A DNA stretch of 64,000 bases from a virus (taxonomy: Duplodnaviria; Caudoviricetes). A program made the position numbers and the translations under genes. Where the stretch lies: IMG/VR virus record IMGVR_UViG_3300021426_000077, positions 36,428 to 100,427 of that record; one strand, 5' to 3'. The notes beneath the pieces were generated by a model. That model did no database searches, had not been told where the DNA came from, and saw only the letters and a list, made by a program, of their open reading frames with translations. Shown here one piece after another: positions 29,572 through 57,914 of the stretch. The first letter of the stretch is position 1, and the number at the start of each line of letters is the position of its first letter.

Positions 29572-29769
29572 ATGATTTGGGCGATTTTTAGTTCTGATAA
29601 GCGATATATTATTGATTTTTTCAAGGGAAATTCTGATGATTGTTGGAAATATGTGCAGAAGCATAGCTATAATTGTGGGATGATTGGATCTATAAATGAA
29701 GATGTTGTAGACCTATGGAATGATGGATGGGAATATCTTGATGGAATGTGGATAGCTCCGAAATCATAA
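29572..29769 (+). CDS. hypothetical protein
   Basis: ORF track; follows the previous gene. Confidence 0.5.
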   Translation: MIWAIFSSDKRYIIDFFKGNSDDCWKYVQKHSYNCGMIGSINEDVVDLWNDGWEYLDGMWIAPKS

Positions 29770-30041
29770 TTGAAAATTGCTCTTGACATTTTTTTGGACG
29801 TGGCAAATCTATATCCTACCTCGCAGGTAGGAAATAACCCACAACCATGCGCCCAGTCGCAGCGTTTTAAATCCAGGTCAAGCATGGAGGTAATTGCTTA
29901 AATAATTTATTCAACTAATGAGCAATGTCGAACTGTGCCCCCGTCTTTGAGAAATGTGATGATTTTGTGAAAGTACTATGCAAGCCGGTCAAAGAGTGCT
30001 ACTCTTTAACTAAAGAGAGGACCAGAGAGAAAGGCAAGACA

Positions 30042-30242
30042 ATGACAACCATTAAGACAAATAAGGCCTATGAAACAAAGGCTTACGAGGGTTTCGCTAC
30101 CTATTTCCCTGCAGGCGACACCGCTACTATCACCGCAGAGTACACTACTAAGTGGGGTAAGATGTATGACGTAACCACCGCACACAATGGCAAGTATAAC
30201 GTATCCGAAACGGTTCTGAATCAGATTTTGAATCTGAACTAA
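30042..30242 (+). CDS. early hypothetical protein
   Basis: GAAAGG RBS, MTTIKTN..., downstream terminator. Confidence 0.6.
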   Translation: MTTIKTNKAYETKAYEGFATYFPAGDTATITAEYTTKWGKMYDVTTAHNGKYNVSETVLNQILNLN

Positions 30243-30439
30243 AAAGGGAATTTCATTCCCTTTTTTTAAATTGGCAGAGTTAGAATGCGGTAACTTTTTC
30301 CAGGAGATAAAAGGTTAAATAATTAAATGTTTGATGAGCGGGATCCAAGAGAGTAAGAAGATCTCACAGAGTAAGGACGTGCGGCCGCTGCTCTTGTCAC
30401 GCTCGCCTAGCTGTCCGAGCGGCTGGCGTGGCTGGCTCG

Positions 30440-30540
30440 CTGTGCGTGCTATGTGTGTAGTGTTGTGCATGTGTGCTATGTGTGTTGTGTTGTATCATGC
30501 ACATGTGTATCATGTGTGTATGTATGTGCAAATGCACAAC
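30440..30540. repeat. TG/CA-rich low-complexity tract
   Basis: atgtgtgtagtgttgtgcatgtgtgctatgtgtgttgtgttgtatcatgc... Confidence 0.8.
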
Positions 30541-30729
30541 CGTGGTTGGCCGAAAATTTTAGCACTACACGCAGAGCAATGCAAGCGACAATCGCAAGAT
30601 TCTTAGAAAATTTCTGTATGTGTAGGAAATGTGGAGAGTCTACAATTTTGTCATTCTCACGTGCGGCCGGCCTAAATAAGCGTATTATATTAATCAAGGA
30701 AAGGCACACCAACCCGAAAGGACAAGACC

Positions 30730-31005
30730 ATGACCGCCTACGCCAACCTCCGCAACGTCCTCGCTACCATGTACGCTGCTAACTACTTCGCTGATGATGC
30801 CGATGTTTCTAACGACCTTATTGATGCCTACACCAACGCACAGTTCGACCTCGAGGACCACCTCTTCGACACCTGCCGCACCTCTGCAGACTTTGACCAC
30901 GTGCATGAGCGTTTCGATAAGATGGTAGAGCGCGCAGCTCGTACCGCTTCTAAGGGCGATGCAAACTTTATCGCCGCTGTGATGGACGACATTCATCAGT
31001 GGTAG
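30730..31005 (+). CDS. early hypothetical protein
   Basis: GAAAGGA RBS, GC3-rich codons, terminator 31007-31035. Confidence 0.7.
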   Translation: MTAYANLRNVLATMYAANYFADDADVSNDLIDAYTNAQFDLEDHLFDTCRTSADFDHVHERFDKMVERAARTASKGDANFIAAVMDDIHQW

Positions 31006-31521
31006 AAAGAAAGAGCCAAACGGCTCTTTTTTTCTTTGTTTAAAAAGTTAGCCTAAACTAACATTCTAAAGCCTTTTGCGGTTTGGCTTATTTAAATAAG
31101 CCTTTTGACTTATAAAGCCTTAGAATAGCTTAGAATGGCCCAGACGGCGTATTTTTTTAGTTAGGTGCCTTATTATCGCATGTAATTATGTAGTATTTAT
31201 GAACCCTTAAAAAGGCTCTGAGAGTTTGACATTTGCATTAAAGTATGGTATAATTAAAATGAATGTCCAGTATGGCCGAAAAAGTTAGCCTAGGTTAACT
31301 GTAGAAAAATCGAACACCAGTTCGCGTGTATGGCCGAAAATTTTAGCACAGTGCGCGGCAAAAGTCAAGAACTATTTTGTGTCTCCACAAAATCTACACA
31401 ATTCATCCAGGTTTCCTAAAATGTGGAGATTATGTGTAGATTATTTCACAACTCTTTACTCCAGGCTGTTGACCTGCGAAAATAATAATTGACCAAAGGC
31501 CACGACCACTTGGAGCACACC

Positions 31522-31980
31522 ATGAACGACCTCACACTCCACACCAACTTTTGCGACAACTACACGCGCGCGGCATTTACCCATGATTATATTTTTGCTT
31601 TCACGCTTGACCACATGTTTTACGCGGTCAAGATGGACAATGTAGACGCTCGAACGCTTGTTCTGTTTACCACGCTTGACCGCGCCGCAAAGTCTAAGGG
31701 CGGTGCCGTGTCCCTGCGTTTCCGTCCCACGAACGCTATAAAGCGCGCTATCGTGGAAATGGGCAATGTAGTCTATAAGTGCACCGCCGCTAGTTTCGCT
31801 GCCCTTTGCGAAAGCAACAAATACAATAAGGGCGAGAACGCAGAAAAGCTCGTTACCGAAAAGGTTTTTGGTGAAACGTGGCATAAGGATAGCGTACCGT
31901 TTACCGATGGCGCAGACGTGAGCCATTATCAGGTCAAGTTTCAGGGCGCTACGTTCTGCAAAGAAACGCAGCTCTTCTAA
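31522..31980 (+). CDS. early hypothetical protein (possible nuclease fold)
   Basis: NKGENAEKL...DSVPFTDGADV...YQVKFQGATF. Confidence 0.6.
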   Translation: MNDLTLHTNFCDNYTRAAFTHDYIFAFTLDHMFYAVKMDNVDARTLVLFTTLDRAAKSKGGAVSLRFRPTNAIKRAIVEMGNVVYKCTAASFAALCESNKYNKGENAEKLVTEKVFGETWHKDSVPFTDGADVSHYQVKFQGATFCKETQLF

Positions 31981-32081
31981 TAAGGGCAAATGTGGAGAGT
32001 TTGTGGAGAACTTGCACAAACCCTTCATATCTGTTATATTGGTATCGTGGAAGAGTGGCCGCATAAGAGAAAGGCGCTATA

Positions 32082-32351
32082 ATGGGAAAGAAGAAGAAGA
32101 AGATTACGCCCGTTGAAGAGAGAGCAGTACAAGCAAAGGCTAATGCCGAGAAACTTGCTGATGTGTTTCGTGCCCTTGGTCTTACTGTAGAAACCTATGA
32201 GTATAACCCTACTTGGCAAGTCAACGCAAAAGAAAAGCCTGAAGTTATTTCTGTAGTAGAACTTCCAGAATTGCTTGACAGTGACGGAGAACTTCTTTCA
32301 TTTTGCTTTTCTCATGACACAGGACGCATTATCAAAAATAGCATCTTCTAG
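32082..32351 (+). CDS. early hypothetical protein
   Basis: RBS and promoter upstream. Confidence 0.6.
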   Translation: MGKKKKKITPVEERAVQAKANAEKLADVFRALGLTVETYEYNPTWQVNAKEKPEVISVVELPELLDSDGELLSFCFSHDTGRIIKNSIF

Positions 32352-32568
32352 CGTCAAGGAGTTATGGAGTTCTCCACAAAAACTCCACATCTTGTGCCGG
32401 CGGATCTCCCGAACAAATGTTCGACTCCAGGCAAATGTGTAGGAAATATGGAGACAAAATTCTCGTTGACAGAACCACTAAAGGAGCGTATTATATTAAT
32501 TGTCAGAGGGAGAGCAAAAGGCAATCCCCAAAACCGAGACGAGGAACGTCTCAGAAAGCAGGTGCCAA

Positions 32569-32904
32569 ATGGCAGAGAAGATGACCCGCAAGCAGGCTCT
32601 CGAGTTCGCAATCTCCAACCTCGAGAACGAGGAAGTCACTGAGGTTCTTGGCAAGATGCTTGAGTCTATCAGCAAGCCGCGTGCCAAGCAGATTAGCAAG
32701 GCTCGCACGATGAACGAGAACACCGCTCATGCACTGTGGGAGGTTTCGCCCGAGACTCTTACCACGAAGGCCGCTACTGAGATGGGTATCCCCGAGATTA
32801 TGACCACTCAGAAGGCTTCAGCAGTCCTTCGCGTGGGTGTGGAGCTTGGCCTTTTCGAGAAGGTCACCGAGGGTAAGAAGGTCACCTATCGCAAGATTGG
32901 GTAG
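32569..32904 (+). CDS. small wHTH-like DNA-binding protein, paralog 1
   Basis: TRKQALEFAI...KPRAKQ...TTQKASAVLR...GKKVTY shared with 37831 and 40145. Confidence 0.7.
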   Translation: MAEKMTRKQALEFAISNLENEEVTEVLGKMLESISKPRAKQISKARTMNENTAHALWEVSPETLTTKAATEMGIPEIMTTQKASAVLRVGVELGLFEKVTEGKKVTYRKIG

Positions 32905-33578
32905 CCATGCGACCCGAGCAAGTCGTTAAAAGGCTCACCCTTGCGAGGGTAAAAATCCTGCCAACCTTTGGGGTAACAGGTAGGCGCTAGTTGGCTTCGG
33001 TCGCTAGCGCCTTTTCTTTTAGCTAAAAATAGAACACCAGTTCGATGTAGATCGCCGGCCGCATTTATGGAGATTTTATGAATTTGAAAATAAGGCTTGT
33101 ATCCTAGATCGAAAAATGCTAAAATGAAAATGCTATTTATCTTCTCTTGGAAATAAAAATCATTTGTGAAGAAAATGTGAATTGAAATTTAGACTTGATT
33201 CCTAAAACTAACAAGAGTATATTATTAATTGAAGAGAGGAACCAAGAGAAAGGAGAAAATTATGGTTCTTGGGTTCGGCTCGGGAGGCGTTCCGCTTCTA
33301 TAATTTGCGGCAGTAGCGAGCCGCATTAAAAATTAGTCGCTACCTTGCAAATGAGAATTCTAGATGCCCTCATTTGCAAGCGAGATTAAAAAACAAAAAT
33401 TAAGACTGTTTCCTCGCCCACGTACTGCCTAGCGCTGCGTGGGCGAGATTGTTTTTTGAAATTTAAAATCGAACTAGTGTTCTGTTTCCTGCGGCCGGTC
33501 GCATTTGTGAAGAAATTGTGAACTGTCCAAAAGTATGATATAATAAGTATAACGAAGTCCAAGAGAAAGAAGAAAACA

Positions 33579-33764
33579 ATGACCATTTACACAAATCTCC
33601 TTCCTATTCTTGATGAATGCAACGACCGCATTCCTACAAAAGAAGGTCGCTACATCATTGTTAAAACTCGCAATGACATGGTCTATCTTATGAACATCGA
33701 CAATGGTGCGCAAGGCGCAATTGCTAAAGATTACTTCGAGAAAGAGTTTGAGCCTTGCGAGTAA
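33579..33764 (+). CDS. early hypothetical protein
   Basis: Cassette promoter plus RBS. Confidence 0.55.
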   Translation: MTIYTNLLPILDECNDRIPTKEGRYIIVKTRNDMVYLMNIDNGAQGAIAKDYFEKEFEPCE

Positions 33765-34566
33765 GATTTTTAATTATTTGGTTAATCAGTTAACCTGCGA
33801 AATCTGCTAAAGTTAGTCTAGGCTAACTCTTTGTGCCGGCTACGCTTATGAAGAAATTGTGAATTGAAAATTATGCTTGACACCGATGCCACACTATGGA
33901 ATAATAATAGTTGAAGCGGATGGGGCACAAAAGCACCAAGTGCGCCGCAAAAGAGTGGTAATCGCTCCACTAAAAAAATTGCGAGGACTGACCCACCTTA
34001 CGGGTCTTTTTTCTTTTTTAAAAAATTTTTGTGACAAAAAAATTTTTTTATGATATAATATAATTATCAAAAGAGAGAAAGGAAAATTATGATTGAGATT
34101 ATGACAAACGTCTACATTGCTTTTAGTTGGTTTTGTCTCATTGTTTTTGGTACTTATGTTCTTTGTTGGCTCGATGAGCACAATTACTGGATGCCACCTA
34201 TCTATGTCGGTTGGGGTGCTATCCTGTTCATTCTTACTCTTATTGTTAACTTCATTAGTTAGGAGAAGACATGACTGTTACAGAACTTATCTTCAAGCTT
34301 CAGCAGGCTTACTTTAAGTATGGAGATGTACCCGTTTATCTTCATTTAGATGAAGAACCCGAGTGCACTGACGTTATTTATCTAGCTGAGGGAGAAGAAG
34401 AAGGCCTACACAATGAAGCGCATTTATGTCTAATGAATTAACCGAACACTAGTTCGGTTTTTTGTGCCGGCCTAGGTTATGAAGATTTTGTGAAGATGGT
34501 TGACAATTCGCTAAGAATAAATTATTATTTAATTGTCGCGTAAAATCAGCAAAAAAAGGAGTAACT

Positions 34567-34791
34567 ATGTTTGACCCCATTTGGTATTGTACTTATGAAA
34601 CTCAAGATGGGTGCTACTATTTTGCAAACAAAGATATTAAAATACTTTGTTCTGCTCTTGAAAAATTTTTTACAGAATTAAATTTGACTTGGGAACGAAA
34701 AGAAGTGCTGAATGCAAATAAAGAACTTTGCAGTATTCTTTATCGTCCTAATGATGATGATGATGGATGGGTTAGCATTCAACTACGATAA
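34567..34791 (+). CDS. early hypothetical protein
   Basis: TTGACA promoter plus AAGGAG RBS. Confidence 0.55.
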   Translation: MFDPIWYCTYETQDGCYYFANKDIKILCSALEKFFTELNLTWERKEVLNANKELCSILYRPNDDDDGWVSIQLR

Positions 34792-34929
34792 AACTAAAGA
34801 GTTTAGCATTTCTCTACAAAAAATGCACAACTTTAGCCGGCGGTAAATTGTGAAGATTTTGTGAAGAAACTTGCATTTTTAAAATGAATATTCTAAAATA
34901 GTAACCGTCAACCAAGAGAAAGGATAATC

Positions 34930-35775
34930 ATGCAGGCTGTTTACTTTGATATGGATGGTACTATTGCTGACCTCTATGGCGTTGACGGTTGGCTTGAATC
35001 TCTTCACAATGAAGATGTTACCCCTTATGAAGTTGCAAAGCCTCTCTGCAAAGAAATGATGATTCTTAAAAGCATCTTGACTACTCTTCGCAGCTTTGGT
35101 ATCACTGTTGGCGTGATTAGCTGGAGCGCTATGGATGGCTCTAAGTCTTACAATAGTAAGGTGCGACAGGCTAAAAAGGAATGGCTCAATAAGTACTTTG
35201 GAAACGTGTTTAATGAGATTCATGTTGTCAAGTATGGCACTAACAAGAGCCGCATTGCAAAGATTAAAGACAGCATTCTTTTTGATGATAACGCAGACGT
35301 GCGGGCAACGTGGCACGGCAACGCCTATGACGAAAAGAATATTGTCAATGTTCTTTGCGGGATTATCGCGCAACTGAAAAGTAAAGGCATGAAGAAGAAG
35401 AACTATGAAGAAGATTCTTCTGTGCCCTCTGCAAATGGTCACTATGCTTACATTGACAAGATTTGTCTTGCAGATTTGTCTATTATGACAAAGGTAGGCA
35501 AAGCTAGCAACCTTAGAAGCAGGCGTAATCAGCAAGCATCCTATCACTATGCTGACATGGCTAAAACTAGTAATGTAGAGATTAAATATTACTTTGTGTG
35601 CAAAAGCAATGAAGATGCTTTAGCTATGGAGAACGTTCTGCGTGGCGCTATGATGATGGTTTGCCCTTACAAGTTTAAACTAAATGATAGACTTCTTTAT
35701 TGGGATGATGAAATAGTTGAAAAAATTATTAATCATCCTGACGTAAAACGCTGGGCAAAAATTCTTTGTATTTAA
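34930..35775 (+). CDS. HAD-family hydrolase fused to a T5orf172/GIY-YIG-like C-terminal domain
   Basis: YFDMDGTIAD, ILFDDN HAD motifs; C-terminal YAY...KVGKASNLRSR...AMENVLR. Confidence 0.75.
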   Translation: MQAVYFDMDGTIADLYGVDGWLESLHNEDVTPYEVAKPLCKEMMILKSILTTLRSFGITVGVISWSAMDGSKSYNSKVRQAKKEWLNKYFGNVFNEIHVVKYGTNKSRIAKIKDSILFDDNADVRATWHGNAYDEKNIVNVLCGIIAQLKSKGMKKKNYEEDSSVPSANGHYAYIDKICLADLSIMTKVGKASNLRSRRNQQASYHYADMAKTSNVEIKYYFVCKSNEDALAMENVLRGAMMMVCPYKFKLNDRLLYWDDEIVEKIINHPDVKRWAKILCI

Positions 35776-36164
35776 AAGTCAAGTGAGAAAGGAGACTCCA
35801 CAAAGTCTCCACATCTCACGCCGGACGCAATTGTAGAGATTTTATGGAGACACTTGCGTTTTAATCAATTAAAAATTATAATATAATTGTCAAGAGGGGA
35901 CGAGGAAAGGAGTCATCTTCTAGTACTACAAAGGCAAAAGCAGAGGTTTAGGCGTGCGAATGTGAGTAGCCACAAGAAAAGAAACGCCTACCCCGTGGTC
36001 GTCCTAGGCAAGACCACGGGGTTTTATTTTAGGCTTTAAACCGAACTGTTGTTCGATTAGATCGGCCGGCGCGAATTGTGGAGACTTTGTGAATTTAAAT
36101 TTTCTCGAACAAAAATAAAATTATTTGGTATAATTTTATTGGTCCAGAAAGAAAGGAGCATGGC

Positions 36165-36386
36165 ATGGCAAAAATAAATACAAAACGAATGAGCGCAGAG
36201 CAAATTTGTTGCTATCATGCAATAGATAATTGGATGCGCTGTCCTTCTGTTGCAACTTTTAAAAAGTTGTATCGTGATGGCTTTCGTTATCGCTATCCTT
36301 TCAATCCTATTTATAGAACATGGCGTATCTTTTGTAACACTATTTTTGGCAGGTATGCACAAATTCTAGAACAGGGTTACATTTAA
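36165..36386 (+). CDS. early hypothetical protein
   Basis: GAAAGGAG RBS. Confidence 0.55.
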   Translation: MAKINTKRMSAEQICCYHAIDNWMRCPSVATFKKLYRDGFRYRYPFNPIYRTWRIFCNTIFGRYAQILEQGYI

Positions 36387-36523
36387 AAATCAAGTAGTTT
36401 GAGAGTATCTACACAAAAACTCCACGTTCTTAGCCGGCCACAATTGTGAAGATTCTGTGAAGGTATTCACATTCTTTCTATTCTGTGTTAAACTATGTTT
36501 GTCCAGGAGAGAAAGGAAAAAAT

Positions 36524-36743
36524 CATGAATTGGAATCGCACTGTTTATCTCGTTCTCGCTCTCACCATCCTTGGTCAAATTATCGTGCGGGGTAGCTACA
36601 TTTGGGGACAAAGCGCATGGCTTATCGCTAACAGCCTGACTCTTATTCGAGATTTTGCGCTTGACCGTCCCGCTGCTGACAAGGTAAAAAACTCTTGTAT
36701 GCTTGCTATCACTGTCGGTCTAATCGTTCTCTATTTCCTTTAA
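36524..36743 (+). CDS. small membrane protein
   Basis: Hydrophobic segments; RBS before MNWNR. Confidence 0.55.
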
Positions 36744-36811
36744 AAAAGTTCTTGACTTTGTAAATGGAATCCTCTACAATGGAATCATCCAAGAAAGAGA
36801 AAGGAACTGCA

Positions 36812-37027
36812 ATGACTCTTGACAACCTCATTTCCAAGCTTCAAGACGTGCGTGCGGCAAATGGTAATGTTAACATTCAACTGCTTGAGCTGTATGGTAC
36901 TAAGCAGCGCAAGGGAAAGAAAAACTCTATCTTCACCAACGACATTCATCTGTCGTATGCTGAAGATGAAGATGAGCCGATTGAGCAGGCTCCGCAGGTC
37001 AAGTCTAACCCTATTGGATTTTGCTAG
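36812..37027 (+). CDS. early hypothetical protein
   Basis: GAAAGGA RBS before MTLDNL. Confidence 0.55.
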   Translation: MTLDNLISKLQDVRAANGNVNIQLLELYGTKQRKGKKNSIFTNDIHLSYAEDEDEPIEQAPQVKSNPIGFC

Positions 37028-37260
37028 AAAGGTGGTTTCTTTATGCGGGACTACATCGCAGCCTTTGCCATTCTTGTAAATCTTCCTTTGTCTCTTGTTC
37101 TGTTTGTAATTCCAATTCTTGCGATCATTTTTGGCTAACCGAACACTTGTTCGGTTGGCCTGGATCGCCGGCGCCTTTTGTGGAGATTTTGTGAAGACGT
37201 TGACAAATTCCCTGGAGTAGATAATAATATAATTGTCCTCCAAGAGAAAGGAAAAAGAAA

Positions 37261-37464
37261 ATGACTCCCATTCGTGAAAAGTTCAATTTCTACTTTGTTG
37301 GTGAGACTATCGAGGACGAAATTTTCTATCATGAGCCTGACCGTCCTATGTCTCAGCTCCACGCCGAGCTTATCGCGAAAAAGTTCCTGCAGGAATTGGG
37401 TGGCGGGCATCTTGACGCATTCAATTCTGACACAGACGAGTTTGTCTTTGATGTAGAAATCTAG
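37261..37464 (+). CDS. early hypothetical protein (similar to 47684-47866)
   Basis: KKFLQELGGGHLDAF vs QELLETLDGGSFDIY. Confidence 0.55.
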   Translation: MTPIREKFNFYFVGETIEDEIFYHEPDRPMSQLHAELIAKKFLQELGGGHLDAFNSDTDEFVFDVEI

Positions 37465-37830
37465 CGTAGACCGAACTAACGTTCGGTCGAACGCGCCGGC
37501 TTCAAATGTGGAGATTTTGTGAATTTGAAAATGATCATTGCAATGTGATTCCTTTATGTGTTATAATAGAAATGCTAGCCGCTTGCGGCCGAAAAATTTT
37601 ACCACACCGCGCATAAAAAGTCCAGAGGAATCCAGGGTTGTCGGTGAACGGTAGAAAAAGAGCGGCGAACGGTTTTCCCGCAACCTAGATGATCAAATGT
37701 GAAGGAATTGTGAAGGGGCAAGTTTTCTCTTTACAGGTTAGGGGAACAAGCGTATAGTAATAGTCAAGGAAGGGGAACGGAAAAGCCGAACCCCACAACC
37801 GCGGGGACGCCCCGCAGAAAGAAGGTAGTC

Positions 37831-38181
37831 ATGTCTGAGACCACCATCACCCGCAAGGCCGCTCTTGAGTTCGCCATCGCCAACCTTGACAATGCTGAGG
37901 TCTGCGCTGTGCTTCAGAAGATGCTTGACAGCATTTCCAAGCCCCGCAAGGCCACTGAGAGCAAGGCGCGCAAGGTCAATGAGAACCTTGCTAACAAGGT
38001 CGCTGAGCTGATTGCGGATAACCACGCTACGGCTATCACTACCAAGGACGTTGTGGCGCTTGGCATCCCTGAGATTGCTACGACGCAGAAGGCGGCTGCT
38101 GTGCTGCGTGTCGCTTGTGAGCTGGGTAGGTTTGAGAAGGTCGTGGACGGTAAGAAGGTCGGTTACCGCAAGCTGCACTAG
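37831..38181 (+). CDS. small wHTH-like DNA-binding protein, paralog 2
   Basis: Similarity to 32569 and 40145. Confidence 0.7.
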   Translation: MSETTITRKAALEFAIANLDNAEVCAVLQKMLDSISKPRKATESKARKVNENLANKVAELIADNHATAITTKDVVALGIPEIATTQKAAAVLRVACELGRFEKVVDGKKVGYRKLH

Positions 38182-38427
38182 TCCCAAGGGTGAGCGGGGC
38201 ACCCTAAAAACCCCGCATTTTTCTTTTGCTCAAGAGTTAGCCAAGGTTAACTTTTTCCTGGATCTGCCAAAAGTTAGCCTAATCTAACTTTCTGTGCCGG
38301 CGCGAATTGTGAAGAAAATGTGAAGGAAACTTTTTCCAAAAAACTATTGACCCCAGGAGCTAACAAGAGTATATTATTAGTTGTCGGGCGGGCAAGGGGT
38401 CTGCCCTCGGGGCCTTGGAGGTCTATC

Positions 38428-39120
38428 ATGCGTAAGGTTTTTGCTATTCTTGACATTGAAACCATCACGGACGCGCGTCTCGCGTTTGACGTGGCTTGGA
38501 TTGTCTGCGATTCTCACGGTGCGGTTCTTGAGCGTTACAATGCGCTCGTCTCTGAGATTGCAAACGCGCCTTTTGGTTCAACTCTGATTGCCCGCGATAG
38601 CTTCATGCGTAACAAGTCTGATTTCTATCGTGACGCGCTAGTATTTCACTCTGTCCCCGTCAAGTCATTCGCTGAGATTGCGGCAGACTTCGCGGCGATT
38701 TCTGAGCGCTACAATGCTACTACTGTTATGTGTGCCTACAATGCCCGATTTGATTACTCTGTGCTGAATGATAACGCTAACATGTATTATGGTGAGAACT
38801 TCTTTAGCGCAGACGTTGAGGTTGTGGACATTATGACCATGGCACTCGCTACCATTTGCGATACTAATAAGTATGTGCGTTGGTGCATGGTTAACGGTTG
38901 CATGACTGATAAGGGCAACGTAAAGACTAACGCTGAAACCGTGTATGCTTATCTTATGCAGGATAAGGACTACACGGAAGCGCATCACGCGCTGCAGGAT
39001 TGCGAAATTGAATCTGAGATTTATTTTAAGGCGCGTAAGCGTAAGCAGAAGCACCACAAGCAATTTGCATGGCCTGTTTTTGGTTGCGAGGAATGGCACA
39101 AGGTACAAAATCGTAAGTAA
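38428..39120 (+). CDS. DEDDh 3'-5' exonuclease
   Basis: ILDIET, AYNARFD, HHALQDCEIE motifs. Confidence 0.88.
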   Translation: MRKVFAILDIETITDARLAFDVAWIVCDSHGAVLERYNALVSEIANAPFGSTLIARDSFMRNKSDFYRDALVFHSVPVKSFAEIAADFAAISERYNATTVMCAYNARFDYSVLNDNANMYYGENFFSADVEVVDIMTMALATICDTNKYVRWCMVNGCMTDKGNVKTNAETVYAYLMQDKDYTEAHHALQDCEIESEIYFKARKRKQKHHKQFAWPVFGCEEWHKVQNRK

Positions 39121-39426
39121 GGGTAAGGGCGCGCAAGCGCCCTAACCTTTGCCGCAAATGTTAACCTGGGGTAACTTTCCCTGGATCGCGCCGGCCAAGG
39201 TTATGTTTTTTCAAAAATTTTGAGATTGAGTATTGACTGCAGGACTCCAAAGCATTATCCTTTTAAGGGAGGGAGGGAGGGATAGACCTAAATAGTTAAA
39301 TGATTTATGTTCCAGGTCTTCAAAAAAAAACTATTGACTCTCATGCTCAAAGTAGTATCATTAATAGTGAGCAAGGGGACATTGAGAATCGAATAAAGTC
39401 AATCCACTAACTGGAAGGAGTTTAAA

Positions 39427-39651
39427 ATGTGCGACTTTTGCAAGCCTATGACCGTCGAAGAGTGGAAGGAGTTCAAGGAGTGGAAGGACTGCAATCCCTA
39501 CCGTGGGGATGAGCAGGTTGAGTATGAGGGCATCTGGTATGCTCTGAAGCACCGTAAGTTCTTTATTGGTGCAAAATTTGATGGTGGGTACCTCTCTGAT
39601 GAGGTTGAACTCAAATTCAAGTTTTGTCCTATGTGCGGGCGCCCTCTGTAA
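39427..39651 (+). CDS. small Zn-ribbon protein
   Basis: MCDFC...FCPMCGRPL. Confidence 0.7.
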   Translation: MCDFCKPMTVEEWKEFKEWKDCNPYRGDEQVEYEGIWYALKHRKFFIGAKFDGGYLSDEVELKFKFCPMCGRPL

Positions 39652-40144
39652 AGAGGGCGTTTTTCTTTGTGTAAAAAGTTAGCAAAGGTAAATTTTTTGC
39701 GCCGGCTAAAACCTCTGATAAAGTATCTTATGTAAAGTAGATTCTCACGCATTCCCGCAGGTAAAAAGCTTGTATCAGCCGCAAACTCTGATAAAGTATC
39801 TTATGTAAAGTAACCAATTGTTAGTCCGGCCATCGCAGATGGCCGAAAATTTTACCAGGCCTGCAATCAAAAAACAAGACTTGACTCGGCGAACGGTAGG
39901 AAAACAGCGGTAAACGGCACCCAAAACTTGATCGACCGCTCATCCCCAAAAACCTACCGTTCGCCGACCTTTTCTAGCTATTCAGACCCTACAAGCGTAA
40001 TATTATTGGTGGGGAGAGGAAGCGTCCCCGCGAACCTTGAAACTAGAATTTTCTCAAGACCTAAAAAAGGTCTAAAATCTGCCAATTAGCTAGGCACAGG
40101 GTCTAGCTAGAAATAACCCCTACGGGGGAGAAAGGTGGGACACT

Positions 40145-40498
40145 ATGACCACCAAGCAGAACAGCATTACCCGCGCCGATGCCCTCGCTTTTGCTATCGA
40201 GCGTTGCGAGGATAACCCCGAGGTTGTGGAGGTGCTGACCAAGATGCACGCGAGCATTACCAAGCCGCGCGCCAAGCAGGTTTCTAAGGCTCGAGTTGGT
40301 AACGAGCACCTTGCAACCCTCGTCCGTGACGCAGTTAGCGCTCACGGCGATGGTATGGGTACCAAGGACATTGTCAACCTCGGCATTCCCGAGATTACCA
40401 CCACGCAGAAAGCTGCGGCCGTTTGCCGTGTTGCGTGCGAGCTCGGTTATCTGCACAAGAACGTGGACGGTAAGTCGGTTACGTATTCCCTCGCGTAG
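40145..40498 (+). CDS. small wHTH-like DNA-binding protein, paralog 3
   Basis: Similarity to 32569 and 37831. Confidence 0.7.
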   Translation: MTTKQNSITRADALAFAIERCEDNPEVVEVLTKMHASITKPRAKQVSKARVGNEHLATLVRDAVSAHGDGMGTKDIVNLGIPEITTTQKAAAVCRVACELGYLHKNVDGKSVTYSLA

Positions 40499-41251
40499 CC
40501 GCGCGACCTAGGCAAGTCGCTAAACTGCCTAACTAACTTATTCCCGCGCCCTAGGTTGACTAAATGAGAATGAGAGGTCCCTAGGGCGCGGATTGTTTTC
40601 AATTAAAAGTTAACCAGGGTAAACTCTTCGGACGATCGTGGCCTGGAGCGAACAAGTGTTCTAGTTGGCCGGCATGATCGAACAAATGTTCGATTTGCCA
40701 TCGATCGTTCTAAAACTACCGTTCACCGACCCGCAAAGAATTTTGATTTTGACTATTGCATTCTGCCCTCGTAATAGTATCATGGAATTGTACTCAAGGC
40801 GGCGACCAAATAGGCCTAACCGAACCAGGTAGGGTACCTAATGCGCATTATGCGGGGAGGACAAAACAGGTGTACTACCAACACCCCTACCTAAATTACA
40901 GAACAAACGTTCTATCGAACTGGTGTTCGATTTTCAAAAACCGAACTGGTGTTCTATAACGTACTCCAAATCGAACTGGTGTTCCATGTTCGGTCCTGCC
41001 GAGCCGTGCGCACGCATACGGCTTTTTCCCGTGAATTCGCGACTCGCATACGCCCATACGCAAAATTCCTAGAATTTTCCTAAAACCAGCATACGCAAAA
41101 TATAGCATACGGCGCATCTGTAGATTTTCACTTGACAGAACCGCATTTTTATGGTATAATTAAAGTGACGGCCTTTTTTTGCCCCGCACTTTCCTAAAAA
41201 AAGACCCGCACGCCAATCGGCATACGGGCCTTCATGCTAAAATCGCTATAC

Positions 41252-41620
41252 TTAAGCGCGCTTCTGGACGAGAGTTACCTCATACGTTTTACCATCGATT
41301 TCGAAGTGGAGCTGACGCTCAGCATTAGTAATCTCCACTCCATTCTCCGCAATTGCCCCAAGAGAAGAAGCAATAGTATCAATGATCATCCTCTTGGTAT
41401 CATTAGGCTTGCGGGTTCTTGCTCGGGATGACTTGGCCTTCGTGGTTTCTTCAACCTCAGTCTGATCCTTGTATCCCTGCTCTCCCAGGTAGCGCGCAAT
41501 AGCGACCGCATTACTAATCTTTTCTCGGCGAGCCTGCCTAAAGACGTCAGCCGGAATAACGACAGTCTGCGGGGTTCCGTTCTTGTCAGTGAAAGAATAT
41601 TTGACGTCTCCAGGATTCAT
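41252..41620 (-). CDS. hypothetical protein
   Basis: RKPNDTKRMII...ITNAERQLHF...VTLVQKR; RBS present. Confidence 0.65.
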   Translation of the reverse strand: MNPGDVKYSFTDKNGTPQTVVIPADVFRQARREKISNAVAIARYLGEQGYKDQTEVEETTKAKSSRARTRKPNDTKRMIIDTIASSLGAIAENGVEITNAERQLHFEIDGKTYEVTLVQKRA

Positions 41621-41715
41621 GCGGCTCTCCTTAATAGCACATGGGGTGGACCAAGCCCGCCACCCCTCGGGCGTTAACTAGCTATTTACTGTGGCGTTTA
41701 ACAGGCCGCCGCAGC

Positions 41716-42067
41716 CTAGGCGATCTCGAAGGTAGCGGGATCGCTCTTCTTCTCGCCGTCGTGACGGATAACGCGACCCTCACGGCCAAGGTAACGGAGG
41801 GCGGCGCTCATCTTCTGAGCAGAGCAACCAAACTCCGCAGCCATGTCCTTGTTGGTGACAGGCTCATCGTGGTTAGCGAGGGCGTTGTAGACGTTCTCAC
41901 GGAACTCGACAACCTCTGCGTTCACCTTAGGCTTGCGGGGACGAGCAGCGTTCTTCTCGATCTGCGCGATCTTCTTCTCGCAGAAGGCAACGATCTCGGG
42001 GTCGTCAGCCATGTACTCAGCGATGCGGGCGTAGAGGTCCTTCTGGGTGGTCTTGGTCTCGGTCATG
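41716..42067 (-). CDS. wHTH DNA-binding protein (distant member of the same family)
   Basis: VTNKDMAAEFGCSAQKMSAALRYL. Confidence 0.7.
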
Positions 42068-42379
42068 GTAGTTCTCCTTTTCTGCCTTGCGGCTGTCCTT
42101 TGGTCAGCCCCTTTGGCTGACTCTTTGTTTATTGAGGAGGTCATCCTCTCAGGGTTTGGACTTTTTCCTCTCCCTTTTTTCTAATTATATTATATCATGT
42201 TTTTATGTCTGCTGTCAAGTACTTTCTTTTGGTTTAGTTCACTTTATTTTCACGTCTCGTTCATGATTTCCTCCTTCTCCCTCTCTCTTTATATATATTA
42301 TAGCATAAAAGTAGGGCAGCTGACAAGTTTTTTCTTTTGTTTTAGCCATATTTTTTATATATTTTATGCTTTTTTATAT

Positions 42380-42560
42380 AAAAATGAGATCGAAAATGAA
42401 AATTTTATGCAAGAAACGTTTGAAAATGAAAATTGAAAACGAAAATTCAAAATGAAAATTCATTTTTGAAAATGAAAACCAAAATTTTATTCAAAAATTC
42501 TTTTGATTTTCAAAATTTTTTAACAAAATATGCAGAATTTTTAGTTGAAATTTTGATTTT
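42380..42560. repeat. A-tract repeats (GAAAAT)n
   Basis: gaaaatgaaaattgaaaacgaaaattcaaaatgaaaattc... Confidence 0.75.
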
Positions 42561-42737
42561 ATACGCTTTTTCCAAGAGAAGAGATAGAAATGCGGCCACT
42601 TGCAAATGAAAATTGTAATTAACAATGCTTAAACATACGCGGGGAATCCAGTGATTTTCGGTCGAAATACCTGAGCTCAGGAGAGGTGAGTGGCTTAGAG
42701 GTTGTGCGCCACAGCTCCGCTGTCATATGTAGCCATT

Positions 42738-42926
42738 CTATGCTTTTTCTACTGGATTTTTAATAGTTTTCCGTTTTCTGTTTCTAATAGCATATAGATA
42801 TGCTTGAATTGCTCGTCTAGCCATTCCAGATAACGATTCTCCACGCTCTTCTGCAAGAACTTGTAATTCTTGCTTTTCCATTGGAGAAATTAAAATCGAA
42901 ATTTGTTCTTTAGGTATTTTACTCAT
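42738..42926 (-). CDS. ribbon-helix-helix (CopG-like) protein
   Basis: QISILISPMEKQELQVLAEERGESLSGMARRAIQAYL. Confidence 0.7.
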   Translation of the reverse strand: MSKIPKEQISILISPMEKQELQVLAEERGESLSGMARRAIQAYLYAIRNRKRKTIKNPVEKA

Positions 42927-48412: not shown

Positions 48413-49609
48413 TTACTTAGCCTTGAAATTCCAAACAGGGTACATATGAGCTATAATATCTGCATTAGGATGAATTGCCTGGATGATCGCCTCCGCATCC
48501 TTATATGCCATAGGAGCCTCATCGAGAGTCTCCTCGACTACAGAAGAAGAAGCAATACCATCCATTGCATTCTGAAAATCCTTAAGAGTCAACTGATTGC
48601 GGGCCTGCCCTCGCGACATGACACGACCAGCACCATGCGGCAATGAGCAGTTCCAATCCTCATTTCCAAGAGAACGAACAATGAGAATTCCATCGCGCAT
48701 ATTCAGAGGGATAAGACCAATCTGACCCTTATATCCCTCAATAGCGCCCTTGCGGATAATGTGATGATCAACATCTACATAGTTATGAATACAAGTAATC
48801 TTCTGCGGATCAAATGCCCATCCCATATACTTAGCAACCTCACGATAGATTGCCATATGAGAGCGATAAGAAAACTCGTTGCAAATCTTCATATCATGGA
48901 GATAGTGCTCCATATCTTCACCCTCAAGATAGCAAAGATCATCCGCAGGCTCAGCCGCAATTATCTCACGGCAAAGCTCAATCCATCCCTGGATACGATC
49001 AACACGATTAATTGCGCGAAGCGCTGCAATTCCCATCTTCTGATGAAGTCGATGCTGTTCTATACGCTCATTGCGACGATCGATTGCAATCTGCTGATAA
49101 TACTCAGCAATCTGCTTTCCAAGGTTGCGGGATCCGCAATGAATTACAAACCAATACTGATTATACTCAGAATTATAATCAAGCTCGAGATAGTGATTTC
49201 CACCACCAAGAGTTCCCATAGACTTGCGGAGACGATCATGATTCTGCAGGTAGTCCCAGCAGTAAAGATCCTCATATGGAAAATCTACAGAAAGCTCATG
49301 CTCAACAGAACGAACATCAAAGCCAGTCGGGATATACTCTCGACAAACCTGATCCAGATACTCGCAATCAATATTATCAGAGTTAACAAGAAAAGCAGAC
49401 ACACGGCAAGCAATATCTACGCCTACGGTGCCAGGAACAATCTTATCCTTAAACTCAATGGTCGAGCCAACAACCGCACCCTTCCCCGCATGAGCATCAG
49501 GCATGATGCGAATCTTAGAATCTCGATACGCAGGAGAATTAGCAAATGCGTCAATCTGCTCAATGGTAACAAGGTCATTACCAACCATAAAGTTCTTAAG
49601 ATCAGCCAT
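48413..49609 (-). CDS. rtcB: RtcB RNA ligase
   Basis: IMPDAHAGKG, VGVDIAC, GTLGGGNHYLE, HCGSRNLG, HNY, RKGA, SLPHGAGR, LDEAPMAYK. Confidence 0.96.
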   Translation of the reverse strand: MADLKNFMVGNDLVTIEQIDAFANSPAYRDSKIRIMPDAHAGKGAVVGSTIEFKDKIVPGTVGVDIACRVSAFLVNSDNIDCEYLDQVCREYIPTGFDVRSVEHELSVDFPYEDLYCWDYLQNHDRLRKSMGTLGGGNHYLELDYNSEYNQYWFVIHCGSRNLGKQIAEYYQQIAIDRRNERIEQHRLHQKMGIAALRAINRVDRIQGWIELCREIIAAEPADDLCYLEGEDMEHYLHDMKICNEFSYRSHMAIYREVAKYMGWAFDPQKITCIHNYVDVDHHIIRKGAIEGYKGQIGLIPLNMRDGILIVRSLGNEDWNCSLPHGAGRVMSRGQARNQLTLKDFQNAMDGIASSSVVEETLDEAPMAYKDAEAIIQAIHPNADIIAHMYPVWNFKAK

Positions 49610-50209
49610 AATTCTCCCTCTTTTCTCATTTTCTTTAATTATATTATAACATAAAAAAAGAGCTTCTGTCAATAATTATCTTACCGACAAAAGCTCTACA
49701 ATTTAAAGATCAAGTTTATGAATAATATCTTCGTAAGTAAAATGATTATCAATCATATCTTTAATGTGAGGAATTTTACCTTGACTGTAGTAATCATTAT
49801 ACTTATCCCAAACCTTTGTAGTATCATTGAGACTATATCGTCCAGGGATTGGAACTGCATACCCCGCAGAGCCGTCACTTTCGGGAAAAAGCTGATAAAG
49901 CTGACGATTTTGCTTAATTGCATACTTCATTTTCATTTATTTTCCTTCCTATATGTGACGTTTAATTAGCTTCTGGTAGAAGATTACTTGGACTTCCATC
50001 ATACTGACTAATTGTAAATCCTTGCGGAAAACGCAACTTAATAATTACTTCAGTATTTGCCGATGCAGGAAATTGACATATATCTTCATCTTCCCTATAG
50101 ATTTCAATTTCAGATATTGCGCCAGAGTAAGCCTGATAAGTTTCATCTGAACCATCTGAAAAAGCTACTGCAACAATTGCATCTCTTACTCTCTTAAATT
50201 TCTTCATAC

Positions 50210-50773: not shown

Positions 50774-52577
50774 TAATATTCCTTATCTATATTTAGTAGT
50801 TGGAATTAAATCAGTGGCGATACTAATATATTTATTGCCTTCTTTTTCTGAATGATGAACAAACTGATACCCGCAATGTTCGACTGTATCCAGAAAATCT
50901 ATAAATTGACCGTAAAAATCTATTTTTGTTTCTCGATTCCAATTTTCTGGCGGATAAGTCTGAATTCGTTGAAACCAATTATAGCGTTTAATTAGATAAT
51001 CTTTATCTACATAACGATCAATTTCTTCTTTATACGCCGCATCTATACGATTAGCAATCATATAAAGATATTTGTAAGGAGGACAACTTTTACTTTCTTC
51101 ATTCCTAATAAAATGATCTGCCCATTCCCGTAGCTCTTTTGTAATAATCATATGTGTACTCTTTCAATTTCCAGTGGTCACAAAAATTATCAAAACAAGT
51201 TGGTCTTCCAGTTCTCTCACAAGGAAACCAATAAAGATCTTTGCCTTTATCGTATTGAATGTGTCTTAATTGAAAGAAATGACAATTCTTACATGTTTTT
51301 TCCATCATTATAAATTTTTCTTGTTTTATGATTTAGTTTTTCTTCAATTTTGTCTAATCTTTTAGACAAACGTCTTATATTGTACCAAAGGTTATATACC
51401 TCATGGTTTTCTAGCTTTCTAACTCTGTGAGCTAATTCTCAGAAATCTCTATCGGTTATCATATGACACCTTCTCAAAATTACTTATAAAAAGCATAAAC
51501 TTCATTATTTCTTGTATCTGATATATAGTTGCTCTTCCAATAATTTCCCATTTTCCTTCAACATAAAAAATTGTAAGATCCTTATTAAAGCAATGGAAAG
51601 AAAAAGAATCAAATTCAAGAAACTCTAGAGAGCTACAATTCTTTGCAAACCAACTATAAATTTCTGAAAACTGAAAATCTGCCCAATCATTCAGAATAGC
51701 TTCTGAAAATTCATAATCATTCAGCATATCAAAAAATTTCATTATTTCAATAGGAGAAATGTTAGTTTCCATCTTTTTCCATTTCTTTCTTAATGTTGCG
51801 GATTTTGCGGGAAAGCTTACGAAGGACGCCATTGCCTTCACTGTTTTTACCATTTGCCATTAGTCGGTCATATCGGCTCTGAGTTGCCGCAAGTTCACTC
51901 TGTAGATTTTTAGAATTCATACTCATACTCCTCTTCAAACCAGAAATTCGTATAAAAATAATACATAGGGTCAGAACCAATCCATACATACTTACTCATA
52001 GGAACTCCTTTCCCTTTTTTTCTTTAATTATATTATACCATAAAATATAGTCATGTGTCAACTACTATTTACTACTTATTCGGCACATATTTTGAAAAAA
52101 AGTCAATCTTTTCTCTAAAGAAAGGAAGGCCAGAACGTTCTGCTTCATATTCAGTAAATCTGTCTTGAAGAAATACATTATCTATCTTGCCGCAAATTGG
52201 ACAATACGAACCCCGCACATAATGTACAGAATCACTATAATATCCATAAATAGTAAGGATACAATCAGTATAAAGATGCTTATGATCACTTTTCTTTATC
52301 TTTTTCTTAGACTTTTTCTTTCCTCGGATAGGTTCCTCGGGAAGTTCTGTGTATTTATATTTAAGTTTTTCTTCTTTCCATTCAGACGGCATTGTTAACT
52401 CCTTCTCTTGGAAATTATTGATTTTCTTTTTCTATTATATATTATAACATAAAATTTAATTTTTGTCTATATAAAAAAAGAGCCTTAGATAAAATAAATT
52501 TATCTAAGGCTTTTAATTTTTTTAAAATATATAGAATATTTTTTTATTTAATTTTATAGAATTAATTATTATTTATT

Positions 52578-53189
52578 TTACATTAAACAAGGAACAATTA
52601 CAGTATAATTATTTGCTGGCAAAATAAAATATCAGCGTCCTTCTTCTGTTTCAGCTTTTCCTACTCTAGATTGATAATCATAAATTAGAGAAGAATAATT
52701 TTTTTCAAGAAAATCTTCTTTAGAAGGATAAATGTTAATACCTAAATACGGCGAATATGTATTAAGTTTATGTGGACTTTCTGGTATATAACATATGATA
52801 CTACCTGGTTTAGCTTTGCCAATAAAATAAATACTAGAATCATTCATTAAATTTTTAGTCATTTCAATTGTGTTATCATTTTCATCTTTAAATTCACCGT
52901 ATATAGAGTCTGAATATTCAACTCCACCACCACCATACATATCTATTGTAACTGCGAATTCAACTAGTTCTTCTTGAGAATCGTTATTATCATTGTTATT
53001 ATTATTAATAGGATTATCTATATACATAACTCATTGATTATTGTTATTACAGATATATGTATCTCCTGTATCAGCCACGAGAGCAGTAGAAGCAGGTTCT
53101 GCTGGTAATTTTTTTAAATCTGCTATATTATCTACAAAAAACTCATGAGTTCCTAATACAGCATTGGCACTTAAGACTTTATAAGCCAT
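52578..53189 (-). CDS. constant-N/variable-C putative virion protein 1 (TGA=Trp)
   Basis: MAYKVLS...THEFFVDNIADLKKLPAEPASTALVADTGDTYICNN..W*VMYIDNPI. Confidence 0.75.
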
Positions 53190-53232
53190 AATATCACTTC
53201 TCCTTTATATATTAATTATATATTAAGAATAA

Positions 53233-53955
53233 TTAAGAAACGTCCACACGGAACTTGAACGCGAGGTGCAGTTGTTCGGCACCAGCCCTCCGCAAGAATG
53301 GAACCTTGTAGAAATATCCACTAGCGTTTTGTTCAATGGGATATGAACCGTCAAGGTCCCCCATTCCCTCGATGACGAACGTCCCGGTGCCCGTCGTTTT
53401 GTCATAGCTTGTCGGAAGCTCGATGACCTCGGAGACTTCCTCGTCCGCGTCATCGTTCTCGAATACGTTGAGAAGGAACGCTTTCTCGATAAAACTTAAG
53501 GTATTTGTACGGGGAAACACGGCGAAGGCATGTGGACAAGGGCACAAACCGGTATTGGTTGCGGATACACACGTGAAATAGTTACCGTTCCTGGCATCTT
53601 CGAGAGAAATGGAAAGTGCTCTAACCTTGCCGATCATGTTCTCCCTCAGAATATCGCCCTTTGCTGGATCGGCGTTCACGTAACAAAGCGGCGCATTGAC
53701 CCAGTAATCGCTCTTCTGAATAACAAAGCCGTCACCAGCATCCGTATCACTACTGCTGTCTGAAGTATTTTCAATAGGATTGTCAATATATATAACTCAC
53801 TTACCTGCATTATTACAAATATAAGTGTCTCCAGTAGCAGCAACTAGCGCTGTTGATGCAGGTTCTTGCGGCAGTTCTTGTAAATTTTCAACATTATCTA
53901 CAAGAAATTCGTGAGTATTTAATGCAACATTAGCACTTAAAGTTTTGTAAGCCAT
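53233..53955 (-). CDS. constant-N/variable-C putative virion protein 2 (TGA=Trp), GC-rich C-terminus
   Basis: Same N-module; TGA at 53797-53799; in frame with track ORF 53233-53679. Confidence 0.75.
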
Positions 53956-54074
53956 ATTATTTCTCCTTTATATATATTAATTATTTATTAAAAATAAAAT
54001 AGGTTTACGACGGACTTCTTTATCGCGTCGTAGAGCCAGTTGGGGAGAGGGTAGACTTTGGTCATGGTGCCTCC

Positions 54075-55046
54075 TTAGTTGGAGTACTTGATGTAGATTT
54101 CGGGGAAGGTGCCATCGCCCTCGTAGGGCGCTGGGATGTTCGCCAGATTGAGCGCGAGGAACTTGTTCCCCCCGAAGCCCGTCCGTACCTCGTAGGAGGT
54201 GTAGGCTGTCTGCTCGATGATGTAGCCACTCTGCTCGTCCAGTCCCGTGATGGTGCGGAGGTAGACGGCCTGCACGGTCTTGGTTGCGCCGAGCGGGATG
54301 TTCAGCGACGTGCCCTCGACAGCCATGTTGAGCGCGGCCATGTTGAACGTAGCGATGATATTGTCGGGAAGCGTCATTTGCCCTGCTGGTGGATAGTCCC
54401 CAGCATAAATTCTGTCGACGGGCACAGCGTCGCCGCCCATGTAGTCGCTCGGCTCGTCGGTGCCCATGTCGATGTTGACATAGTTGCCGAAGCTCGCACC
54501 CCCGCCGCCAGAGCCTTCCACTTCCACCTTGACGGTGTGGGTGCCTGCGATCTGGGTAGCGATGTAGTTCTCGTTGGTGCTATTGCTGGAAATGGAGAAT
54601 GGAATCGTGGAGAAGTCGACTCTGCCGTCGACAGTTGGAGCGCCGTAGTAGTTAGCGCCCTCTTCATCATCATGTCTCTTCTGGCATGTGTACGTCGTGC
54701 CGTCGAACGTCACGTAGATGGTGTCGGCGTCGATGTACTGCGAGTAGGCAAGCTCTGCCTGCGCGACTGGAAACTCGCCCTGCTGCGCTGTCGTAACCGT
54801 CTCCTCGAACAGCACGGTCTTGAAGTTATTGTCTGTATTATCGCCATTATCTGGCGTATTTCCAATAGGATTATCTATATACATAATTCATTGTTTATTG
54901 TTATTACAAATATATGTATCACCCGTGTTAGCTACCAGGGCAGTTGATGCGGGTTCTTTAGGTAAAATTTCTAAATCTGCAATATCATCAACAAAAAATT
55001 TATGTGTATTGTGAATTGGGTCTGTTTCTAAAATTTTATAAATCAT
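54075..55046 (-). CDS. constant-N/variable-C putative virion protein 3 (TGA=Trp), GC-rich C-terminus
   Basis: Same N-module; TGA at 54888-54890; in frame with track ORF 54075-54884. Confidence 0.75.
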
Positions 55047-55171
55047 ATAATTTTCCTTTCTGTTGGGGAAAAATAATTTTACTATATAAATTAAAAATTA
55101 AGTTTAAATTTTAATAAAAAAAGACCCTTATACGAAATGTATAAGGGTCAATATAAACAGAGTATCTTCTG

Positions 55172-55242: not shown

Positions 55243-55263
55243 GCAGAAGATACTCGATATACT

Positions 55264-55340
55264 TGGAGATAACGAGAATCGAACTCGTGTCCAGGCATTT
55301 TCACTTTGGCTTTCAATGCCTGTCGAACCCATCTATCCCC
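55264..55340 (-). ncRNA. mini-tmRNA (tRNA-like domain only)
   Basis: GGGGATA...TTCGAC AGGCATT-loop-AATGCCT GGAC ACGAGTTCGATTCTCGT TATCTCC A; G3:U70 pair. Confidence 0.75.
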
Positions 55341-57718: not shown

Positions 57719-57819
57719 AAAATTTACCTGCCAATCTTTAATATTTTTCTTTATTTTAAATAAAAATTGGCAGGTTTTTATAATAAAAACTTGCCCAATT
57801 TTGGCAAGTTTGCCAAATT

Positions 57820-57911
57820 CACGCCCTGAAGGATTCGAACCCTCACCCGAGGTTTTGGAGGCCTCTACCCAGGTTTTGAAGACCTGTGTGCTACCATTAC
57901 ACTAAGGACGT
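57820..57911 (-). tRNA. tRNA-Trp with UCA (opal-reading) anticodon arm plus a second CCA anticodon arm
   Basis: ACGTCCT TA GTGT AATGGTA GCAC A CAGGT-CTTCAAA-ACCTG GGTA GAGGC-CTCCAAA-ACCTC GGGT GAGGG-TTCGAAT-CCTTC AGGGCGT G. Confidence 0.85.
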
Positions 57912-57914
57912 ATA

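Follow-up and report, generated by a model that had tools for sequence, protein, structure and literature searches.

Proteins that join a constant N-terminal piece to variable C-terminal parts are known from phages. The internal proteins of T4 share a capsid-targeting sequence and are encoded by the hyperplastic IP locus; the targeting tag is a peptide of about 10 residues, which is cleaved in the prohead. In phages with multiple receptor-binding proteins (RBPs), the RBPs contain a conserved N-terminal anchor or docking peptide and differing C-terminal parts, according to the available text of Latka et al. 2019 (PMC6872550). A similar arrangement was found in a 64,000-nucleotide stretch of Caudoviricetes DNA (the window), which is the last 64 kb of the 100,427-bp IMG/VR virus record IMGVR_UViG_3300021426_000077, a metagenome assembly. 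Three genes of the window, g1, g2, and g3 (the trio), lie in tandem and share an N-terminal module (N-module, encoding the N-domain), behind which each gene has its own C-terminal part (payload).

The trio follows the familiar modular logic of host-recognition proteins in phages, in which the N-terminal anchor is constant. As in the multi-RBP phages described by Latka et al. 2019 (PMC6872550), the genes stand in tandem, the short N-terminal piece is constant, the C-terminal domains are swapped, and unrelated phages take part in the exchange. However, the N-domain belongs to no Pfam or PHROG family, a depolymerase β-helix is absent, the genes are located away from the tail module, and attachment to the virion is putative. 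Similar to the T4 internal proteins, a constant N-terminal tag precedes variable cargo, and the locus varies between close relatives; whereas the constant part is predicted to be a folded domain of 57 amino acids (aa), not a cleavable peptide of about 10 aa. In PBSX, the gene for XepA immediately precedes that for the holin, according to PMC6834076.

TGA recoding has been described for gut phages, including the Agate lineage of ~127 kb (Borges et al., bioRxiv 10.1101/2021.08.26.457843, in its accessible part). Like the Agate-type code-4 phages of that preprint, the window phage comes from an animal gut, encodes a suppressor tRNA of its own, and contains TGA in frame in both structural and lysis genes; its relatives lie on contigs of 124-132 kb, comparable to the size of that lineage. 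There is no difference in code from what the available preprint text describes, and the likeness covers the code, not the clade placement.

Organization of the three-gene locus

All three genes lie on the minus strand. The standard code breaks each of them into an open reading frame (ORF) of 52 codons and a second ORF, and they become complete when TGA is translated as an amino acid. The g1 gene (54075..55046) encodes 323 aa, consisting of the N-module, a linker, domain A (residues ~75-177, a predicted β-sandwich), a GSGGGG linker, and domain B (residues ~185-323). The g2 gene (53233..53955) encodes 240 aa, of which the GC-rich C-terminal part (about 53233-53750) is joined to the N-module by a linker. 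The g3 gene (52578..53189) encodes 203 aa, in which the N-module and linker are followed by an AT-rich, native-looking C-terminal part. Codon 53 is TGA in all three, at 54888..54890 in g1, 53797..53799 in g2, and 53031..53033 in g3, each read here as Trp; g3 has a second TGA at codon 186 (52634-52632). The linker after the N-module is rich in Asn, Asp, Ser, Thr, and Gly in each gene.

These features agree with the original prediction, which had described three tandem genes with a common AT-rich N-module, a TGA at exactly codon 53, and a polar linker. The shared domain spans 57-62 aa. The prediction had also called the C-terminal domains unrelated. Beyond the linker, the remainders of the three proteins have no alignable similarity to one another, and the claim stands in that sense; it is qualified by a C-terminal motif common to 14 of 22 C-terminal classes, as described below.

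The N-modules (residues 1-62) of the trio share 61-73% protein identity and 66-74% DNA identity. Judged by these alignments, they are old paralogs under purifying selection and not recent copies, because their third codon positions are only 52-58% identical. The TGA at codon 53 was therefore inherited once, and does not represent three independent events.

TGA as a tryptophan codon

It is nearly certain that the window phage reads TGA as Trp throughout (code 4) by means of its own tRNA(UCA), and that translation yields the full-length proteins. Read with code 4, the tape measure gene is no longer fragmented and encodes a protein of 2936 aa with 25 in-frame TGAs. The portal, terminase, and sigma-factor ORFs match PHROG families only with TGA read through. 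TGA is equally frequent in the tail module, which lies upstream of the window; one ORF of 1892 aa there has 56 TGAs, for example. Among the stop codons of 23 ORFs that were checked, 21 are TAA, two are TAG, and none is TGA. ARAGORN identified a phage tRNA with the anticodon UCA (57819..57912, minus strand), which scores 57.5 bits with the Rfam tRNA model; by our own reading of its sequence it is Trp-like, with the anticodon loop CUUCAAA and the discriminator G.

The codon-53 TGA of g1-g3 can hardly be anything but an ordinary Trp codon, as opposed to a regulatory stop. In an alignment of 19 N-module family sequences (A6), W53 is at least 90% conserved, and position 53 is Tyr in two close relatives. 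In 13 N-module copies from six related contigs, codon 53 is TGA in 12 and TAT in one, and never TGG. The g3 ortholog on the related contig L011 keeps both TGAs, and the second is followed by an identical 18-residue tail; translation therefore runs past that TGA. Residues 53-56 form the last predicted β-strand of the N-domain in both structure models, and a product ending at residue 52 would therefore be an incomplete domain.

An internal start of the payloads at an own ATG was considered and rejected: codon 55 of g2 is ATA, and no Shine-Dalgarno-like run was seen before codon 55 in the alignment. Database proteins that start with MYIDNPI are code-11 truncations of N-module proteins.

The tRNA(UCA) is 94 nucleotides (nt) long and has a second hairpin in place of the variable arm, which resembles a duplicated Trp anticodon arm carrying CCA (GAGGCCUCCAAAACCUC). 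A gene for the RtcB tRNA ligase is located at 48413-49672.

Capture of the g1 payload from a GC-rich phage

The GC content at third codon positions (GC3) is 0.15-0.16 in the N-modules of all three genes. Beyond the N-module, it is 0.77 in g1, 0.56 in g2, and 0.12 in g3. An abrupt switch to high GC had been described for two of the three genes, and these values bear it out for g1 and g2.

The GC-rich block of g1 (54009..54814, minus strand) shares 79% DNA identity with positions 6445-7259 of L004, with 655 of 828 positions identical. L004 is a 55-kb IMG/VR contig of ~60% GC with the standard code and an integrase. Its gene order is a tail protein, a 717-aa Flg_new-repeat protein, a small ORF, the homolog of the g1 payload, a Dp-1-type holin, and a CHAP/PG_binding endolysin. 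The block spans domains A and B, the g1 stop codon, and the ribosome-binding site (RBS), and extends 19 codons into the L004 holin gene; on visual inspection, the similarity is highest in the domain B half. The holin sequence survives in the window as a scar (53988..54065, minus strand), a 25-codon remnant ORF that agrees with the Dp-1-type L004 holin in its first 17 residues. The scar ORF runs into AT-rich DNA, with the junction at about 54009. The holin is intact in the GC-rich phage and truncated in the window; therefore the direction of transfer is fixed, from the GC-rich phage to the window phage. From these alignments, the g1 payload was very probably captured from a standard-code temperate phage of ~60% GC, and the C-terminal parts are very probably exchanged through recombination at their linkers, presumably in g2 as well.

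The scar is also present in the related contig L007, with an identical junction to AT-rich DNA, but another C-terminal domain lies ahead of it. The same scar behind a different payload therefore suggests that the scar could serve as a homology arm for later swaps.

The g2 payload would presumably have been captured from a GC-rich source likewise. The original prediction had proposed a GC-rich donor of the foreign domains. This is strongly supported for g1, in which the 79% DNA identity over 828 nt continues through the RBS and the holin start. For g2 the support is indirect (GC3 of 0.56, and Trp spelled by TGG only) and no donor was found. The g1 query returned only two GC-rich loci in the IMG/VR scan, L004 and L005; the IMG/VR scans with g2 and with the N-module alignment returned no relative. 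No prophage copy of the payload or of the N-module was found in representative bacterial genomes, and a tblastn search of GenBank phages with g3 and two distant relatives gave no match.

The endolysin of the window phage (L012 733-2150, upstream of the window) belongs to the same PHROG (21825) as the L004 endolysin. The N-terminal parts of the two endolysins are similar, which hints at related hosts.

Payload exchange among related phages

Homologs in further phages show the domains of the g1 payload to be freely shuffled, with at least four different N-termini preceding them. Domains A and B together are found behind two of them (P0010 and P0011), domain B alone behind a third (P0014 and P0015), and an A-like domain behind a fourth (P0019). 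Behind N-modules of the same family as in the window, domain A is paired with three other C-terminal domains; these proteins start with MYIDNPI as a result of code-11 gene calling. Six related contigs (L006-L011) contain one to three N-module genes in tandem; these contigs are short (1.3-2.8 kb), and their genes are often cut at the ends. The same N-module precedes different C-terminal parts in the window and in these contigs, in line with the constant anchor and variable payload that had been proposed. L008 contains an additional fourth ORF without the N-module but with the C-terminal motif. In L009, synteny with the downstream genes of the window is kept, and the third slot holds a different payload.

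Payload GC3 ranges from 0.06 to 0.67 across the related loci, and one relative of the g2 payload with 63% protein identity has a GC3 of only 0.34. The spelling of Trp differs by payload class: the GC-rich payloads have six TGG and no TGA, and the AT-rich payloads have six TGA and two TGG. Together, Trp spelling and GC3 fit an import from standard-code donors. The imported payloads have possibly drifted toward the composition of the phage afterwards, and the intermediate GC3 values may reflect the extent of this drift.

The motif [FYIWLV]x[IVLM]P, which was chosen after inspection of the same data, occurs in the last 35 residues of 14 of the 22 C-terminal classes. In 1000 shuffles, the mean was 2.25 and the maximum was 8; among internal 35-aa windows, 7 of 78 contained the motif. 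A final strand follows the motif, which hints that the classes share a terminal hairpin, or else a fold that has diverged very far.

In gut runs of another study (X5 and X6), the locus is rearranged, with window positions 52519-52674 and 54486-54962 involved. The 3' end of g3 and its flank are joined through 352 other letters to domain A of g1, and an insertion of 655 letters interrupts the N-module region at 54962/54981.

The N-domain family and its predicted fold

A profile search with the N-module (1.84 billion database entries) identified 62 cluster representatives at E≤0.001, including 21 at E≤1e-10; none of the matches has a Pfam family for the N-domain. The g1-g3 proteins themselves gave no family with Pfam (E≤1) or PHROGs (E≤0.1). 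No description of the N-domain family was found in the titles and abstract openings of the recoded-phage literature, which is a weak check. On this sequence evidence, the N-domain family without a Pfam or PHROG model appears to be the new element; the TGA=Trp code is already known. One relative carries BspA-type leucine-rich repeats (LRRs), which are typical of surface adhesion proteins. Many distant relatives are stand-alone proteins of 56-62 aa, ending three residues after the Trp.

The N-domain (~57 aa, β-rich) was modelled with confidence, with a predicted local distance difference test (pLDDT) score of about 90 in one model and 92-97 in the other. Its structural matches are rich in N-proximal domains of phage tailspikes (Z 3.3-4.0, root-mean-square deviation (rmsd) 1.5-2.7, up to 27% identity) and the trimerisation domains of collagen XV/XVIII (Z 4.8-5.5). 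The best structural matches of domain A are phage receptor-binding tips, including phi812/K gp144 (Z 5.8 and 5.5) and T7 gp17 (Z 5.5-5.7 over 83-85 residues, rmsd 3.2-3.5); all fold matches are below Z 8, a range in which the tool considers that only a common arrangement may be shared. Foldseek gave no match against PDB at E≤0.001, and its best matches in BFVD are uncharacterised siphovirus proteins. A kinship of the N-module with the fibre-like N-terminus in the tail region of the same phage was rejected (hhalign probability of 0.5%).

Three repeat proteins (P0030, P0041, and P0078) match the core of the N-module (LDNNPAsvAIVAdGGnLYQLHNtGkIW) in three to seven tandem copies. One of them is fused to a matrixin peptidase, and the repeat is blade-like, as in a β-propeller. 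One repeat copy and the N-domain may share an origin; this is treated as a motif-level resemblance.

Possible function and alternative explanations

The proteins of the trio might be fibres or adhesins exposed on the tail or head of the virion, and the chances of this are judged to be about even. The N-domain would be a constant docking piece, perhaps also an oligomerising one, and the C-terminal domains would be variable binding modules, giving a small and changeable set of surface specificities. The g1 payload very probably came from a gene of a GC-rich temperate phage located between the tail-fibre genes and the holin, and the transfer brought along the first 19 codons of the holin gene. 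In further swaps, homology might then be provided by the scar on the 3' side and by domain A or the linker on the 5' side. In favour of a virion role, the donor-like gene in L004 lies in the tail module, at the tail-to-lysis position, and g1-g3 contain TGA, which is common in the late genes of this phage. The structural matches of domain A and of the N-domain, and the BspA-type LRRs of one relative, point weakly in the same direction. Taken as a whole, the combination of recoding, capture, and virion display is moderately favoured as the best explanation.

Several observations weigh against this explanation. The trio is ~52 kb away from the tail module, at 89-91.5 kb of the genome as compared with about 2-46 kb for the tail genes, and lies among tRNA genes, homing endonucleases, and small genes. 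TGA is also present in non-structural genes, such as the GIY-YIG endonuclease, and is therefore no proof of late expression. The stand-alone relatives of the N-domain fit a small autonomous binding protein of any kind. A sequence-profile search of PDB gave no usable match, XepA and YomS included; domain B and the g2 payload have pLDDT below 50, so that their folds are not predicted, and the fold matches obtained stay in the low Z range given above. The search with the g2 payload found only two close relatives, both behind this N-module, and no donor. The use of the scar as a homology arm is derived from two loci only.

The original prediction had explained the codon-53 TGA by a leaky stop, in which partial readthrough fixes the ratio of a bare 52-aa anchor to the anchor plus payload. 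The position of TGA at the same codon in all three genes and in 12 of 13 related copies, never replaced by TGG, would suit such a mechanism, and release factor 2 of the host could in principle still compete at TGA. However, the copies are related by descent, so the TGA counts are not independent, and at a GC3 of 0.15 TGA is simply the expected spelling of Trp. Programmed readthrough also supposes that the codon acts as a stop elsewhere in the genome and that the short product is a complete foldable unit. Here, TGA is used as a sense codon genome-wide (one essential gene has 25), its tRNA(UCA) is encoded by the phage, site 53 is a near-invariant Trp or else Tyr, and, by structure prediction, a product ending at residue 52 would lose the last strand of the domain. 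The leaky stop is thus contradicted on several sides, and is considered very improbable and close to refuted. A still smaller chance is given to the GC-rich segments being chimeric joins of the metagenome assembly instead of real fusions. Such joins would account for the abrupt changes of composition inside ORFs in a record that is a metagenome assembly, but the reading frames are open across both junctions. Both the g1 5' junction (54252-55100) and the g2 junction (53447-54012) are spanned by contigs of a second sample (run X3, records 15 and 13). In runs of another study, the g1 N-module is joined to domain A (about 92% identity) in a differently arranged locus, and the independent contigs L006, L007, and L009 carry orthologous fusions of the same kinds. 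The assembly chimera was rejected on the basis of the bridged junctions and the independent fusions.

A more substantial alternative to virion display, although rather unlikely, is that the proteins act inside the infected cell or at lysis. They might be accessories of the lysis cassette like XepA, or form a host-takeover or counter-defence set in which the N-domain binds one partner and the C-terminal domains vary in an arms race. The donor gene in L004, directly upstream of the holin, has the position of XepA and, like XepA/YomS of Bacillus prophages, encodes a two-domain β-rich protein, as these are described in PMC6834076. The trio itself is outside the structural module, amid tRNAs and small genes, and appears insulated by terminator-like hairpins with T runs, one upstream of the trio after tRNA-Thr (55123..55149, minus strand) and one downstream of g3 (52481..52511, minus strand); stand-alone N-domain relatives of 56-62 aa also exist. 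However, no solved structure, including those of XepA/YomS, is matched in sequence, and XepA and YomS are not among the fold matches listed, with domain B poorly modelled. The best fold matches are instead receptor-binding tips and parts of tailspikes, and one relative has BspA-type LRRs. It is also conceivable, but improbable, that the locus is a dedicated cassette acceptor, in which the N-domain TGA gates the payloads and the scar and linker are fixed recombination arms. The N-domain would then supply the virion docking and the only TGA codon of g1 and g2. A captured standard-code payload would be translated only once the tRNA-Trp(UCA) is made, as a portable gate for late expression, and the phage would repeatedly sample the gene ahead of the holin in co-infecting GC-rich temperate phages.

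Other features of the genome

A promoter-like site (TTTAAA-16-TATAGT, 55081..55108, minus strand) is located 35 nt upstream of the g1 start; it is a consensus match only. Beside the tRNA genes, the Rfam tmRNA model scores 56.8 bits on 78 nt at 55263-55340 (minus strand), with no ARAGORN call. The tape measure gene (1688-10498, minus strand) contains a Hint/intein-like insert, with a CFIAGT...HN stretch in the translation. The tail module has its own sets of modular paralogs (L012 9967-13150 and L012 3816-13988); three of these proteins end with RVEAW, and two begin with MAGQ...FYGTC.

The region of about 13 kb at 29600-42900 of the window has a GC content of 0.40-0.58 and is stop-dense in six frames under code 11, code 4, and with TAG as a sense codon. 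Its 12 longest ORFs have no convincing Pfam match. It contains at least 11 copies of the GCCGGC-N6-TTGTGAAGAnnTTGTGAA motif, as well as ACCGAAC...GTTCGGT hairpins and repeated RBS-like sites. It resembles an early region that is made up of numerous short transcription units on the plus strand.

Implications

In summary, a false lead is removed, as a TGA common to paralogs in a recoded phage is not a regulatory stop. The g1 gene presents a clean and dated-looking domain capture across a composition gap and a genetic-code gap, in which DNA of a standard-code temperate phage of ~60% GC is fused in frame to a gene of a TGA-recoded virulent phage of ~30% GC. This cross-code and cross-composition transfer is unusually well documented because of the holin scar. 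The spelling of Trp (TGG or TGA) together with GC3 provides a simple internal marker of foreign modules. If the virion location is true, display applications would gain a new, small anchor in the N-domain, and the locus would be a natural host-range toolbox in rumen and gut phages.

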